DNA from: an uncultured delta proteobacterium
Lineage (GTDB): Bacteria > Myxococcota > Myxococcia > Myxococcales > Anaeromyxobacteraceae
DNA: 64,000 nucleotides
Assembly: GCA_963828255.1 (NCBI GenBank)
Contig: CAWHDZ010000026.1
Location: forward strand, 49,509 to 113,508
Reading direction: 5' to 3'
Below are positions 94 to 14,405 of the stretch, in pieces. A model generated the notes under the pieces. That model saw only the letters and a program-made list of their open reading frames with translations, had not been told where the DNA came from and ran no database searches. A program made the translations under genes and the position numbers. Position 1 is the stretch's first letter; every line of letters starts with the position of its first letter.

Positions 94-197
94 GCGGCGG
101 GTCGGATCTAAGGGTTGCGGCAGGGCCCCGTCAACGAAAGCATCCACCCCCCCCTTCCGGTCGACGCGGCGAGGGGTGCGCGCTACACTCCGCGGCG

Positions 198-1159
<962 letters not shown>

Positions 1160-1163
<4 letters not shown>

Positions 1164-2059
1164 GCCCGCGCCCCCCCGACGAGGTCCGCGGCTCCACGCA
1201 GACCCAGGTGGTGATCCTGACCGGCGTCTCGGGGTCGGGGAAGACCACCGCGCTGCGCGCCCTCGAGGACGGCGGCTTCTACTGCGTCGACAACTTCCCC
1301 ATCGTCTTCCTCGAGAAGCTGCTCGAGCTCTCCGGCCACACCGCCGGCGAGGTCTCCCGCATCGGCCTGGTGGTGGACGCTCGCGAGCAGCGCTTCCTGG
1401 CCGACGCCCCCCGGATCGTCGAGGACCTGCGCCGCAAGGGGGCCGACGTCACCGTCCTCTTCTTCGACTCCTCCGACGAGTCGCTCATCCGCCGCTACTC
1501 GGAGACCCGCCGCCGCCACCCGCTGGCCGGGGGCTCGGGCAGCGTCCCGGAGGGCATCGCCGCCGAGCGCAAGGCGCTCGAGCCCCTGCGCGCCGTGGCC
1601 GACGAGGTGGTGGACACCACGCGGCTCAACGTCCACGAGCTGAAGCGGCTTGTGCACAACCGCTTCGTGGGCGCCGGCGCCGACGCCATGGGCGTGACCC
1701 TGGTCTCCTTCGGGTTCCGCACCGGCATCCCCGCCCACGCCGACCTGGTCCTCGACGTGCGCTTCCTGCCCAACCCCTACTTCGTCCCCGAGCTGAAGCC
1801 CTTCCCGGGCACCGAGCCCAGGGTGCGCGACTTCGTCCTCGGGCAGGAGGACGCGCAGCGCTTCCTGGAGAAGGCCGAGGACCTGGCCGGATTCCTCATC
1901 CCCCGCTACCGCGCCGAGGGGAAGACCTACCTGACCGTGGCCATCGGGTGCACCGGCGGGCGCCACCGCTCGGTGGCCATCGCGACCGAGCTGGCGGCCC
2001 GAATGGGCAAGCGCGGGATCCCGGTCCGGGTCTGGCACCGCGACGTTGACAAGGAGTGA
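1160..2059 (+). CDS. rapZ: RNase adapter RapZ/YvcJ-family P-loop protein
   Basis: [52 protein letters not shown] start overlaps hprK stop (GTGA). Confidence 0.95.
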
Positions 2060-2065
2060 ACGATC

Positions 2066-2506
2066 ATGATCGGGGTGGTGATCGCGACGCACGGCAGGCT
2101 CGCGGAGGAGGCCCTGGCCTGCGCCGAGGGGATCGTCGGGGTGCTGCAGCGCGCCCGCGCCGTCTCGGTCTCCTCGGCCCTGCCGCTCGACGCCGCACGC
2201 GAGGCCATCGCCGCCGCCATCCGCGACGTGGAAGAAGGGGACGGGGTGCTCATCCTCACCGACATGCTGGGGGGAACGCCGGCCAACCTGGCGCTGGGCT
2301 TCCTCGGCGACCGCGTCGACGTCATCACCGGCGTGAACCTCCCCATGCTGCTCAAGCTCTCCACCTGCCGGACCCCCGAGGCCACGCTCCCCGACGTGGC
2401 CCGCCTCATCTGCGCCTACGGCCAGAAGAACGTCACGCTGGCGAGCGACCTGCTCCGGCCCAGGGGCGCCGCCGGCCCTGCGCCGGGGGGCGGAGGATCG
2501 GCATGA
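2066..2506 (+). CDS. PTS mannose/fructose-class EIIA
   Basis: VVIATHG phospho-His motif, LTDMLGGTPAN, GVNLPML. Confidence 0.92.
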   Translation: MIGVVIATHGRLAEEALACAEGIVGVLQRARAVSVSSALPLDAAREAIAAAIRDVEEGDGVLILTDMLGGTPANLALGFLGDRVDVITGVNLPMLLKLSTCRTPEATLPDVARLICAYGQKNVTLASDLLRPRGAAGPAPGGGGSA

Positions 2507-2997
2507 TCGCGCTCGTCCGCATCGACGAGCGGCTGGTCCACGGGCAGGTGCTCGTGGGCTGGGTCCCGCACCTCGGCGCGCGGCGGGTGGTGGTCGCGGA
2601 CGACGAGGCGGCCCGCAGCCCGCTGGCCCGGGCGGCCATGTCGCTGGCGCTCCCCCCTGGAGTGGAGGCGTCGGTGGATGCGCTGGGCGCGGTGGACTGG
2701 GAGGCGCTCGGGCGCTCCCCCGACCCGGTGCTGGTGGTGCTCCGCGACGTGGCCCTGGCCGAGCGGGCGCTCGCCGCCGGGCTCACCCCCGGGCGGGTCG
2801 CCGTCCTGAACGTCGGGAACGTCCACTACGCCGAGGGGCGGCGGCAGGTGACGCCGTCGGTCTTCCTCTCCGGGGCCGAGGTGGAGGGGCTGCGCCGGCT
2901 CGCCGCCGCCGGCTTCCGGGTCGAGATCCGGGCGGTCCCCCTCGACGCCCCCATCGACCTGGCCGAGATCGAGCGGCGCTGGGCCGCCGCCGGCTGA
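2503..2997 (+). CDS. PTS mannose/sorbose-class EIIB
   Basis: RIDERLVHGQV motif, LNVGNVH; ATGA overlap with EIIA. Confidence 0.92.
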   Translation: MIALVRIDERLVHGQVLVGWVPHLGARRVVVADDEAARSPLARAAMSLALPPGVEASVDALGAVDWEALGRSPDPVLVVLRDVALAERALAAGLTPGRVAVLNVGNVHYAEGRRQVTPSVFLSGAEVEGLRRLAAAGFRVEIRAVPLDAPIDLAEIERRWAAAG

Positions 2998-3012
2998 TAG
3001 GATCGGGAAAGC

Positions 3013-3708
3013 GTGGACTACCTCGTCGTCGCCGTGGTCGCCGGGCTCGCGGCGGTGGAGCGAAAGGGCTTCCTCCAGGCCATGCTCTCCCGCCCGGTGG
3101 CGCTCGCCCCCATCGTCGGGTTCGCCCTCGGCGACCTCCCGGGCGGCCTCCTGCTCGGCCCGCCGCTGGAGCTGCTCTGGCTGGGGGCGGTGAACATGGG
3201 CGCGTCGCTGCCGCCCAACGAGGCCCTCGCCACCACGGCCATCACCGGCGGTGCGGTGCTGGCCGGCGGGGCGCTCGGCACCGGGGTCACCCCCGCGGTG
3301 GCGGTGCTCGCGGTGGCGGCGGCGGGGATGATGGCCACGCTGGGGCGCACCACCGACCGGGCCATCGAGGAGTGGAACGTGCGGCTGGCCGCCCGGGCCG
3401 AGCTCCTGCTCGGGCGCGGGTTCCCCGCCGCCGCGATGCGCGAGAACCTCTACGGGCTGGCCGCGCCCTTCGCCGTGTCGGCGCTGCTCGCCCCCGCGGC
3501 CGCGGCGCTCGTGGCGCTCGTCGTCCCCGCCGTCCTGCGCGGGTTCCCCACCCTGAACGCCCCGCTCGGCTGGGGGTGGGCGGCGCTCCTGGGGCTGGCC
3601 GCCGCCGCCGGCGCGCGGGCCTTCCGCAGCGCGCGGGGCATCGGCCTCTTCGCCGGGGCCGCAGCGGTCACCCTCGCGGTGGGCTGGCTCCTGGGAGGGA
3701 CCCGGTGA
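3013..3708 (+). CDS. PTS mannose-class EIIC
   Basis: Hydrophobic protein with SRPV..., LELLWLG..MGASLPPN; operon position. Confidence 0.85.
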   Translation: MDYLVVAVVAGLAAVERKGFLQAMLSRPVALAPIVGFALGDLPGGLLLGPPLELLWLGAVNMGASLPPNEALATTAITGGAVLAGGALGTGVTPAVAVLAVAAAGMMATLGRTTDRAIEEWNVRLAARAELLLGRGFPAAAMRENLYGLAAPFAVSALLAPAAAALVALVVPAVLRGFPTLNAPLGWGWAALLGLAAAAGARAFRSARGIGLFAGAAAVTLAVGWLLGGTR

Positions 3709-11954: not shown

Positions 11955-11983
11955 TTGCAAGGTCGATCTGCGTTCGCTAATCT
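11955..11983 (+). promoter_or_regulatory. Candidate sigma70 promoter for the micro-ORF/rqcH unit
   Basis: TTGCAA(11955-60)-17 nt-TAATCT(11978-83) in an AT-richer intergenic region. Confidence 0.6.
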
Positions 11984-12039
11984 GCACTCGTCTTCGTAGT
12001 GCGTCGTTGGTAGTTGACCAACTGTCAGGGAGGTAACAC

Positions 12040-12114
12040 ATGGCTGCCAAGAAGAAGGCTGTGAAGAAGGCTCCGGCGAAGAAGAAGGCTGTGAAGAAGG
12101 CCAAGAAGAAGTAA
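12040..12114 (+). CDS. 24-aa Lys/Ala-rich micro-protein MAAKKKAVKKAPAKKKAVKKAKKK (histone-H1-like/leader peptide)
   Basis: Not in ORF track; AGGGAGGT Shine-Dalgarno just upstream of ATG; all Lys codons AAG; upstream promoter; downstream hairpins. Confidence 0.75.
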   Translation: MAAKKKAVKKAPAKKKAVKKAKKK

Positions 12115-12126
12115 CGATGCCTTCGT

Positions 12127-12176
12127 GGCGCGAGGAGACTCGCGCCGGGTCTTGCGGCCGCCTCCGGGCGGCCGCA
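12127..12176 (+). terminator. Twin GC-rich hairpins between micro-ORF and rqcH (terminator, attenuator or stabiliser)
   Basis: GGCGCGAG-gaga-CTCGCGCC (12127-46) and TGCGGCCGCC-tccg-GGCGGCCGCA (12153-76); only a weak T-run follows. Confidence 0.5.
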
Positions 12177-12192
12177 GCCGTTTCGGGCTCCC

Positions 12193-13656
12193 GTGTCCCT
12201 GCGCTCCGGCGAGATCGCGCTCCTCATCGAGGAGCTCCGCCCCCTGGTGGGGTCGCGCGTCGACGCGGTGCGGGTTCACTCCGAGCGGCTCGTCACCCTG
12301 GAACTGCGCGGTCCGGCCGGCGACGCCACCCTGCTCCTCTCCGCCGAGCCGGACCTCACCCGCCTCCACGCCGCCACCTGGCGCCCCCCGTCCCATCCCG
12401 AGCCGCTGGCCTTCCAGGTCGCGCTGCGCCGCGAGATCAGTGGCGCCCGGCTCGCGTCCATCGAGGCTCCCGGCGGGGATCGGCTGGTGGCATTGCGTTT
12501 CGAGCGCCCGGCCGGCCCCGTGTCGCTCCTGGCCGAGCTGACCGGGCGGAACGGAAACCTCCTCCTCGTGGACGGAGCCGGCGTCGTCCGGGCCATGGCA
12601 GGCCGGAACCTCTCCCAGCGCCGGGCGCTCCTGCCGGGCGCCCCGTACCTCCCGCCGGAGGCCCGGGAGGGGGACGGCGAGGCGCCCCGCTTCGCGCCGG
12701 TGGAGGGCGCGCCGTTTCCCGTCTCCGCCGCGGTCGAGGCCTTCTACCGGAGGCTCGAGGAGGAGCGCGCCCTCTCGGCCGCACGCCGCCGCCTGCGCGA
12801 GCCGCTGCGGGCGGGGGTGGCCCGGTCGCGCCGGGCGCTCGAGAAGCTCGCCGACGAGGCGGCGCGCGTACCCGCGGCCGAGGCCGACCGGCGCGCCGCC
12901 GACCTCCTCAAGCAGAACCTCCGCGCGGTCCCGCGCGGAGCCCGGGAGGTCGCCGTCACCGAGTGGACCGAGGACGGCCCCATCCACGTGACGCTGGCCA
13001 TCGACCCGGCGCTCACGCCGCGCGCCAACATGGAGCGCTTCTACCGGCGCTACCGGCGCATCGCCGAGAGCGCCGCCCGGGTCGAGGCCCGCGTCGGCGA
13101 GGTGAGGGCGAGGCTCGCGGCCACCGAGGCGCTGCTCGCCGAGCTCGAATCCGCCCCGCCCGAGGCGCTGCCGCGGCTCGAGCGGGAGGCACGCAAGGTC
13201 GGCGCCGCACCGCGCGTGCAGCGCCCGCCCCGCCGGCGCGACGAGAAGCCGGCCGCTCCCTACCGGACCTTCCGGTCGGCAGCCGGCCTCCTCGTCCTGG
13301 TGGGGCGCGGCGCCGCCGAGAACGATCAGCTGACCGTGCGGGTGGCCAAGGGAAACGACGTCTGGCTTCACGCCCGCGGCCGCACCGGCGCCCACGTCGT
13401 CCTGCGGCTCCCCAAGGGGCGAGCCCCCGATCAGGAGAGCCTGCTCGACGCGGCCCACCTGGCCGCCCACTTCAGCGACGCCCGGGGGGAGGCCGCTCCC
13501 GAGGTGGTCTACACGCGCGTGAAGCACGTCCGGAAGGTGAAGGGGGCCGCCCCCGGGGCCGTGACCTACAGCCAGGAGAAGGGGATGGCGCTGCGGGTGG
13601 AGCCGTCGCGCCTCACGCGGCTCCTCCTGGGGGAGTCCGACGGGGAGCCTTCGTGA
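12193..13656 (+). CDS. rqcH: Ribosome quality control factor RqcH/Rqc2 (NFACT, FbpA family)
   Basis: NFACT-N with DR motif (GGDRLVALRF) and ELTGRNGNLLL; coiled coil; NFACT-R GRGAAENDQLT..WLHARGRTGAHV. Confidence 0.88.
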   Translation: MSLRSGEIALLIEELRPLVGSRVDAVRVHSERLVTLELRGPAGDATLLLSAEPDLTRLHAATWRPPSHPEPLAFQVALRREISGARLASIEAPGGDRLVALRFERPAGPVSLLAELTGRNGNLLLVDGAGVVRAMAGRNLSQRRALLPGAPYLPPEAREGDGEAPRFAPVEGAPFPVSAAVEAFYRRLEEERALSAARRRLREPLRAGVARSRRALEKLADEAARVPAAEADRRAADLLKQNLRAVPRGAREVAVTEWTEDGPIHVTLAIDPALTPRANMERFYRRYRRIAESAARVEARVGEVRARLAATEALLAELESAPPEALPRLEREARKVGAAPRVQRPPRRRDEKPAAPYRTFRSAAGLLVLVGRGAAENDQLTVRVAKGNDVWLHARGRTGAHVVLRLPKGRAPDQESLLDAAHLAAHFSDARGEAAPEVVYTRVKHVRKVKGAAPGAVTYSQEKGMALRVEPSRLTRLLLGESDGEPS

Positions 13657-14405
13657 GCGCGGCCAGGGGTCAGCTCGATCTCTCCTTCGACGCCCGCGAG
13701 GCGGGGAGGACGGACCGCGTCGCCGCCGCCGAGCGGCTGGCCGACGAGGTGGCCGCCCGCATCGGCGAGCCTGTCCGGCTCGTGGTGCACGACAACCGGC
13801 ACACCATGGTCTCCTTCCGCCGCGAGCGGACGGCCATCCAGCTCCGCGTCCACCACCTCTTCCTGGGCTGCCCTCCCGAGGTGACCGAGGCGCTGGCCGG
13901 GTTCGTCCGGCCGGAGCGGCGCGCCAGCCGCCGGGAAGCCTCGCGCGTCATCGACGGGTGGGTGCGGATCCACCGGGAGCGGATCTCCCCGCCGCGCACC
14001 GGGCGGCTCCATGCGCGCGGGCGGGTCCACGATCTGCAGGCCATCCTCGATCGCCTCAACGCCGATCACTTCGGCGGGTCGGTCGAGGCCAGGATCGGCT
14101 GGGGGCGGAGCGGGGCCCTGCCCGGGCGCACCTCCATCCGCACCGGGGTGTACCTGCACGCCGCCCGCGCCATCCGCATCCACCCCGCGCTCGACCGGGA
14201 GGAGGTGCCGGTCTTCTACGTGGAGTTCGTGGTCTTCCACGAGATGCTTCACCAGGTGGTCCCGCCGGCCGAGCGGGGGGGGCGCCGGAGCATCCACGGC
14301 CGGGAGTTCCGGCGGCGGGAGCGGTCCTTTCCCGGGCAGGCCCGTGCGGCCGCCTGGGAGAAGGAGAACGTGCACCTCCTGCTGGCAAAACCGGGACGAC
14401 GGTAG
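13653..14405 (+). CDS. SprT/YgjP-like HExxH zinc metalloprotein
   Basis: IRIHPALD..FVVFHEMLH..HGREFRRRE; GTGA overlap with rqcH. Confidence 0.75.
   Translation: MSAARGQLDLSFDAREAGRTDRVAAAERLADEVAARIGEPVRLVVHDNRHTMVSFRRERTAIQLRVHHLFLGCPPEVTEALAGFVRPERRASRREASRVIDGWVRIHRERISPPRTGRLHARGRVHDLQAILDRLNADHFGGSVEARIGWGRSGALPGRTSIRTGVYLHAARAIRIHPALDREEVPVFYVEFVVFHEMLHQVVPPAERGGRRSIHGREFRRRERSFPGQARAAAWEKENVHLLLAKPGRR

Follow-up and report, generated by a model that had tools for sequence, protein, structure and literature searches.

The stretch of DNA analysed here (the window, 64,000 nucleotides) comes from an uncultured delta proteobacterium of the family Anaeromyxobacteraceae in the class Myxococcia (assembly GCA_963828255.1, contig CAWHDZ010000026.1, positions 49,509 to 113,508) and carries, directly ahead of rqcH, a gene of ribosome-associated quality control (RQC), an open reading frame (ORF) of 24 amino acids (aa) that is rich in lysine and alanine (12040-12114, + strand). 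Comparison with related genomes makes it likely that this micro-ORF represents the shortest version of a Lys/Ala-pentamer gene conserved in the Myxococcia, that its product is an abundant, unstructured and strongly basic DNA- or RNA-binding protein, and that its promoter supplies rqcH through a leaky terminator. A first-pass annotation of the locus had considered either a leader peptide coupling translation stress to rqcH or a histone-H1-like micro-protein, and the latter is now supported by a series of lengths reaching up to orthologs that score as HC2, by the spacing of the pentamers and by a full cassette of promoter, Shine-Dalgarno (SD) sequence, ORF and terminator. With this finding, an entire bacterial class gains a gene that had been overlooked and that is nearly single-copy, and its natural length series of 18-221 residues in one syntenic slot offers a way to ask for the minimal length at which an H1-like polycation still acts on the nucleoid.

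The conservation of the gene was established from several directions. Using RqcH as bait, a K/A-rich ORF was found directly upstream in 27 of 30 loci, the others being one truncated by its contig and two without such an ORF; this set includes the window's own locus and overlaps with a second one of 80 named GTDB loci, seven of which came without upstream DNA, leaving 73 assessable. The same slot held a K/A-rich ORF in 56 of these 73 loci from relatives (55 complete, one truncated), and the 17 loci lacking one within 450 nt are in part NFACT genes that are distant or may be paralogs, two of them from Nitrospirota. A search with the start motif matched 86 of 151 searched genomes of the class, mostly once each; 15 of 20 chosen matches were K/A ORFs lying 74-147 nt ahead of rqcH, two were K/A ORFs farther from it and three were basic leaders on unrelated proteins, the stand-alone K/A ORFs among these matches thereby numbering 17 near rqcH, one from another order. 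A basic leader of the same MAAKK type is fused to unrelated folded proteins at six loci of Myxococcaceae-like genomes. The nearest named relative of the window locus belongs to an uncultured Anaeromyxobacter sp., with 97% identity in RqcH. Cultured carriers of the gene include Anaeromyxobacter oryzae Red232 (28 aa) and Archangium gephyra (66 aa). On its other side the cassette has changing neighbours (PGM/PMM, ROK, MotA/ExbB, glycosyl hydrolase 1, SprT-like and others; 39 of the 55 loci were scanned), and therefore it carries its own signals. Besides, rqcH is followed in the window by an SprT-like gene (13653-14405, with a profile score just below the cut-off), and in four distant loci such a gene is found upstream of the micro-ORF in divergent orientation, so that the three genes stay together in different orders.

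All elements listed in the first-pass annotation are present in the window, on the + strand. A predicted sigma-70/SigA-type promoter, of a pattern common to the orthologs, consists of a -35 hexamer TTGCAA (11955-11960) and, 17 nt further, a -10 hexamer TAATCT (11978-11983), whose position puts the predicted transcription start near 11990. The 5' untranslated region (UTR) contains a 6-bp hairpin (12006-12022) and a strong SD, AGGGAGGT (12027-12034), 5 nt ahead of the ATG of the ORF. Downstream of the ORF are hairpin 1 (12127-12146; 8 bp, GNRA tetraloop) and, starting 38 nt past the stop codon, hairpin 2 (12153-12176), a terminator-like stem of 10 bp with a UCCG loop of the UNCG type and a folding energy of -21.9 kcal/mol that is conserved in relatives, followed by a degenerate T-tail with three T (12177-12184) and by rqcH (12193-13656). 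The folding z-score of positions 11990-12230 is -2.42. A strict sigma-70 scan does not call the window promoter, which matches 7 of 12 consensus bases, a terminator scan does not call hairpin 2 with its T-tail on the + strand of the window, and Rfam gave only chance-level matches around the locus, none near any gathering score; the case therefore rests on the comparison among relatives.

Our own pattern TTGnnn-16/18-YAnnnT, looser than the strict scan, occurs ahead of the micro-ORF in 55 of 55 orthologs, against a mean of 3.2 and a maximum of 9 in base-shuffled controls, and the -35 element reads TTGACG or TTGACA in most relatives. The SD duplex reaches -14.6 kcal/mol for the window ORF and a median of -9.7 kcal/mol over the 55 orthologs. 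The distance from stop codon to stem varies from 9 to 40 nt across relatives (median 27 nt), and mostly longer T-runs than that of the window follow, with at least three T within 15 nt of the stem in 44 of 55 loci and at least four in 32. In an equilibrium model, the terminator stem of the window forms with a probability of 0.93-1.0, whether no ribosome is present or one is placed at any of 14 modelled footprints between the start and stop codons, and the stem of 45 of the 55 relatives reaches at least 0.9, with at least two mis-picked stems among the other ten; as long as the 3' arm has not been transcribed, the partners of the 5' arm vary in the model. Since the T-tail of the window is offset and short, termination there is predicted to be leaky. 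Altogether, the predicted cassette (promoter pattern, SD, ORF, stem and T-tail) is autonomous and conserved across the class.

Some parts of the locus are more variable or show features of their own. Hairpin 1 is confined to the genus of the window and two close loci, with a GNRA loop that changes among GAGA, GAAA, GCAA and GCGA, and the 5' UTR stems of relatives differ from, and are not homologous to, the 6-bp hairpin of the window. In orthologs of the f6 family the leader is longer, and a recurring CACTC...GAGTG stem is joined there by a second GC stem ahead of the SD, possibly a stabilising or autoregulatory structure. A GATC tetramer lies within the promoter spacer of 41 of 55 orthologs (the window spacer is 11961-11977), where a regulator or methylation site is possible. 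The terminator stem (12153-12176), single-copy in the genome, is nearly invariant across Anaeromyxobacteraceae down to about 60% RqcH identity while its loop varies, a conservation that exceeds what a terminator needs.

The same comparison bears on whether the unit could instead be a small stable RNA whose ORF is untranslated or whose product is irrelevant. Hairpins with stable tetraloops at both ends and a nearly invariant DNA sequence within the genus (0-7 differences over 85 nt of promoter and UTR) would fit such an RNA, but none of the 55 complete loci has lost the SD, the ATG or an in-frame stop despite the changes in length, the amino-acid periodicity is preserved across the family while the nucleotides are not, and no Rfam match came near a gathering score. 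We therefore regard this explanation as extremely unlikely.

The window protein has a mass of 2.6 kDa, a computed pI of 11.1 and a net charge of about +12.5; 13 of its 24 residues are lysine, only M, A, K, V and P are used, and basic runs begin at residues 4, 9, 14, 19 and 22. Proteins in the slot upstream of rqcH range from 18 to 221 aa with a median of 27 (55 loci); K makes up 40%, A 27% and T 11% of their composition, and aromatic residues are absent from all 1955 positions. The three orthologs of at least 200 aa (200, 202 and 221 aa) score 55.6, 46.4 and 52 bits and thus exceed the 40-bit cut-off of the Pfam HC2 model (PF07382). Profile scores can arise from composition alone, and therefore the published hallmark of Hc2, pentamers of two basic residues and three A, V, T or P residues (as described in PMC2848022), was tested directly. 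The spacing between basic runs was exactly five in 51% of 300 gaps, against 12% (maximum 21%) in shuffles, and 48 of 51 distinct proteins had no K/R run of more than three residues, compared to about 17 of 51 in shuffles. Pentamer architecture with evenly distributed charge and length polymorphism by repeat number, two features of Hc2 membership, were thus both found, and by its sequence the window protein is an evenly charged H1-like polymer reduced to four or five repeats rather than a long polybasic tract.

These properties resemble those of Hc2 of Chlamydia (hctB), Bordetella BpH1 and the H1-like proteins of Burkholderia, which are likewise stand-alone proteins of consecutive pentamers whose length follows the number of repeats. 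The differences are in size, profile and context: Hc2 measures 165-237 aa and the proteins from Burkholderia 149-231 aa according to PMC2848022, whereas the family described here has a median of 27 aa and reaches down to 18, the 24-mer matches no profile, and the family adjoins rqcH. The family may descend from Hc2 or may have converged on it. K/A/P-rich disordered tracts described as DNA-binding also form the C-terminal domains of AlgP, PhaF and the CarD proteins of Anaeromyxobacter and Vulgatibacter (PMC9304148, PMC11894788), the CarD tail being from the same bacterial family as the window (PMC9304148); in contrast to these tails, which are fused to folded domains, the micro-ORF is the tract alone as a gene of its own.

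The likeness to AlgP and PhaF raises the possibility that the main partner of the peptide is another polyanionic body, such as polyphosphate or polyhydroxyalkanoate (PHA) granules. The KPAA-repeat tail of AlgP, similar in composition, has been tied to the spacing of polyphosphate granules (PMC11894788). According to the same source, however, AlgP and PhaF each carry a folded domain at the N-terminus; the micro-ORF family has no such domain and lacks aromatic residues throughout, and no gene for polyphosphate or PHA was linked among the 39 upstream neighbours. A primary role at granules thus seems very improbable.

Several observations weigh against the H1-like interpretation. The 24-aa protein itself matches no Pfam or NCBIfam family (no Pfam family at E<=1), although it is probably too short for the 194-position PF07382 model; none of seven tested orthologs of 41-86 aa reaches the Pfam HC2 cut-off; and no ortholog exceeds the NCBIfam cut-offs for H1-like proteins, the best among six members being 40 versus 135 bits (NF038052) and 42.8 versus 80 bits (NF038053). 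On such low-complexity sequences, the HC2 scores may reflect composition instead of descent. Moreover, the micro-ORF has kept its place beside rqcH far more often than beside the upstream gene, and a functional tie would account for this as well. Translation, DNA binding and nucleoid location of the protein are predictions. In addition, the RNA data in its favour are weak: contigs of one sediment metatranscriptome cover 12002-12135 (one difference) and 12106-12265 (three differences), and the second of these runs across the terminator into rqcH, but the contigs show neither strand, level nor a single transcript, and an origin from DNA is possible. A peak of RNA depth over the ORF (137-3175, with no more than 43 elsewhere) was rejected as cross-mapping from K/A-repeat genes of other organisms, because the pieces were short and diverged with loose ends. 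Finally, the GCT alanine codons that had been described as unusual for this genome are indeed enriched (4 of 7 Ala codons in the window ORF versus 2.4% genome-wide and 2.1% in 25 genes for ribosomal proteins and elongation factors; across the family 12%, compared with 2% both in the genome and in ribosomal genes), and ribosomal-protein genes do not share this enrichment. The low value in the genes for ribosomal proteins and elongation factors led us to reject GCT as a mark of high expression, codon context does not account for the enrichment either, and the use of AAG for all lysines was dropped as a signal because it follows the genome bias (AAA 1.5%).

The leader-peptide proposal, in which slow translation of the lysines or a shortage of Lys- or Ala-tRNA would switch the terminator and raise read-through into rqcH, was not borne out, and we now consider it highly unlikely. 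The architecture favours it at first sight: as in attenuator leaders of the trpL type and in stall sensors encoded by upstream ORFs, a translatable short ORF with a conserved SD lies between a promoter and a gene without promoter pattern or SD of its own and is followed by a terminator-like hairpin, and the better-kept linkage to rqcH points the same way. A study in Escherichia coli reports that a ribosome close behind the polymerase partly represses terminators within about 30 nt of the stop codon, an effect that is gone beyond this distance (PMC4824070), and the median of 27 nt would allow some passive coupling in relatives. Besides, iterated AAG lysines are reported to lower output somewhat, AAG being the less inhibitory Lys codon (PMC4363877).

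Unlike trpL-type leaders, however, the micro-ORF has no predicted antiterminator, given that the terminator of the window kept its high probability at all modelled ribosome positions, and it has neither a fixed length nor a fixed sensing position. The window stem, 38 nt from the stop codon, lies outside the range of about 30 nt, and by the logic of PMC4824070, stalling of the ribosome would make termination more frequent, whereas a stress response would call for the opposite. The basic runs are broken at three residues or fewer and poly-A runs do not exceed three in 53 of 55 loci; in 10 of 51 orthologs the last 11-16 residues contain no basic run, and nothing is held at a fixed distance, with 18-221 aa of ORF, 0-16 residues past the last basic run and 9-40 nt from stop to stem, so that conserved sensing codons at a defined position were not found in the family. 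Hairpin 1, with its narrow distribution, also argues against a general sensing device.

Placement directly upstream of rqcH is likewise not exclusive. In six genomes an intact cassette lies 0.6-6.0 kb away from rqcH with other genes or coding sequence in between: 3.1 kb in Hyalangium versicolor and 6.0 kb in another Hyalangium genome, where the intervening genes, called by a heuristic, are on the opposite strand, and 2.7, 1.1, 2.3 and 0.6 kb in four further genomes. Hairpin 2 is retained in separated copies, and those of Hyalangium keep both the terminator and the GCT bias (7 of 16 Ala codons). The first-pass annotation had named micro-ORFs unlinked to rqcH in relatives as evidence that would refute the leader role, and such separated cassettes are essentially what was found. 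Among ten genomes with an rqcH lacking an adjacent ORF, the start-motif search recovered the cassette in three and a flank scan in a fourth; in the remaining six, no copy was found with the patterns used. Furthermore, two genomes (97% and 89% complete) in which neither the rqcH query nor PF05833 gave a match above cut-off carry similar 27-aa genes with an SD, whose orthology is unproven. The present evidence thus does not point to a new regulatory mechanism.

The persistent adjacency can also be read as co-expression with rqcH of a peptide that acts in trans, as a small basic rRNA-binding factor, on ribosomes or RQC complexes. Small basic factors of this kind include eL41 and the basic tails of S4-domain RQC helpers. 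The peptide adjoins rqcH in 56 of 73 loci, whereas its 5' neighbour is not constant, and all 32 rows of the Anaeromyxobacteraceae clade in a quick version of the rqcH tree keep it at 18-41 aa; in addition, Hc2 has been reported to bind RNA and repress translation (PMC2848022). Nevertheless, a twelvefold range of lengths and interchangeable pentamers of K, A, T and P are unlike a protein with a fixed binding pocket, and the 27-aa genes mentioned above, again with orthology unproven, occur without a detectable rqcH or PF05833 partner, which makes a dedicated ribosomal role rather unlikely. A broader form of the idea would treat peptide and RqcH as one quality-control unit, where a polycation of 18-28 residues binds rRNA or the RNA of stalled ribosomes in trans and translation of the ORF sets the read-through. 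We judge it unlikely as well; if true, such a polycation would be among the smallest H1-like proteins proposed, and the unit would tie the buffering of nucleoid or ribosome polyanions to ribosome rescue across myxobacteria.

That the downstream gene is rqcH, the bacterial NEMF gene, was confirmed by matches to NFACT_N (PF05833, 168 bits) and NFACT-R_1 (PF05670, 54 bits) and by an alignment with Bacillus subtilis RqcH (PDB 7AS8, E 5.9e-49) that includes the DR pair and the E-x-x-G-R stretch. The RqcH of the window, encoded from a GTG start, is shorter than that of B. subtilis (487 versus about 570 aa), and by analogy with B. subtilis, for which alanine tailing on stalled 50S subunits is known (PMC8012679), it may have the same tailing role. 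The gene had been described as lacking both an obvious SD and an obvious promoter of its own. The first statement holds for the window (duplex of -4.4 kcal/mol) and is lineage-specific, since 18 of 55 relatives reach -7 kcal/mol or better; the second extends to the relatives, only one of 55 showing the promoter pattern. A -10-like hexamer just ahead of rqcH was found in only two of 43 linked loci, one of them being part of a T-tail. At three loci a TAnnnT hexamer stands 6-7 nt ahead of the rqcH start codon, the spacing of leaderless transcripts, which suggests that some lineages gave rqcH its own promoter.

Where the two genes adjoin, rqcH probably depends on read-through from the micro-ORF promoter. 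We propose that a strong housekeeping promoter would yield a short transcript some 190 nt long, with hairpins protecting its ends, from whose strong SD the micro-ORF would be translated efficiently. The 2.6-kDa peptide would bind DNA or RNA backbones without sequence preference, like Hc2 and BpH1, and would offset the backbone charge of nucleoid DNA, of RNA or of polyphosphate, while a minority of polymerases would pass the weak T-tail and provide a low and roughly constant level of rqcH mRNA. The link to rqcH would then probably be passive, and a borrowed promoter may be the reason why the linkage has so often been kept, without any need for sensing. This gives a first testable model of rqcH transcription in myxobacteria. 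In the literature searched, mostly open-access articles without their supplements, no description of the micro-ORF gene or of rqcH regulation in myxobacteria was found, nor any paper with both 'rqcH' and 'Myxococcus'; tables of transcription start sites or Term-seq ends for myxobacteria in such supplements may already bear on the read-through claim.

Regarding earlier detection of the protein, computed tryptic pieces of the 24-mer are only 1-4 residues long, and it would evade standard proteomics. A 66-aa Archangium member of the family is held letter for letter by the ESM Atlas, in a 76-member cluster mostly from Myxococcota under an unrelated automatic name, and therefore longer forms have already been called as genes. 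A word-index homolog search with this protein returned no match at E<=0.001, and exact look-ups of 20 family proteins in a collection of 15 billion sequences found none, a result that does not prove the family unannotated.

The genome of the window also carries, unlinked to rqcH, other short K-rich ORFs with SD-like sites, of 41, 36, 43 and 111 aa (C31:85144, C19:64782, C7:204158 and C40:141149, respectively; contig and position within the assembly). The same assembly holds two slightly different spc-alpha ribosomal protein clusters (C23:295-9291 and C40:264443-273491), which fits its contamination figure of 6.6%.

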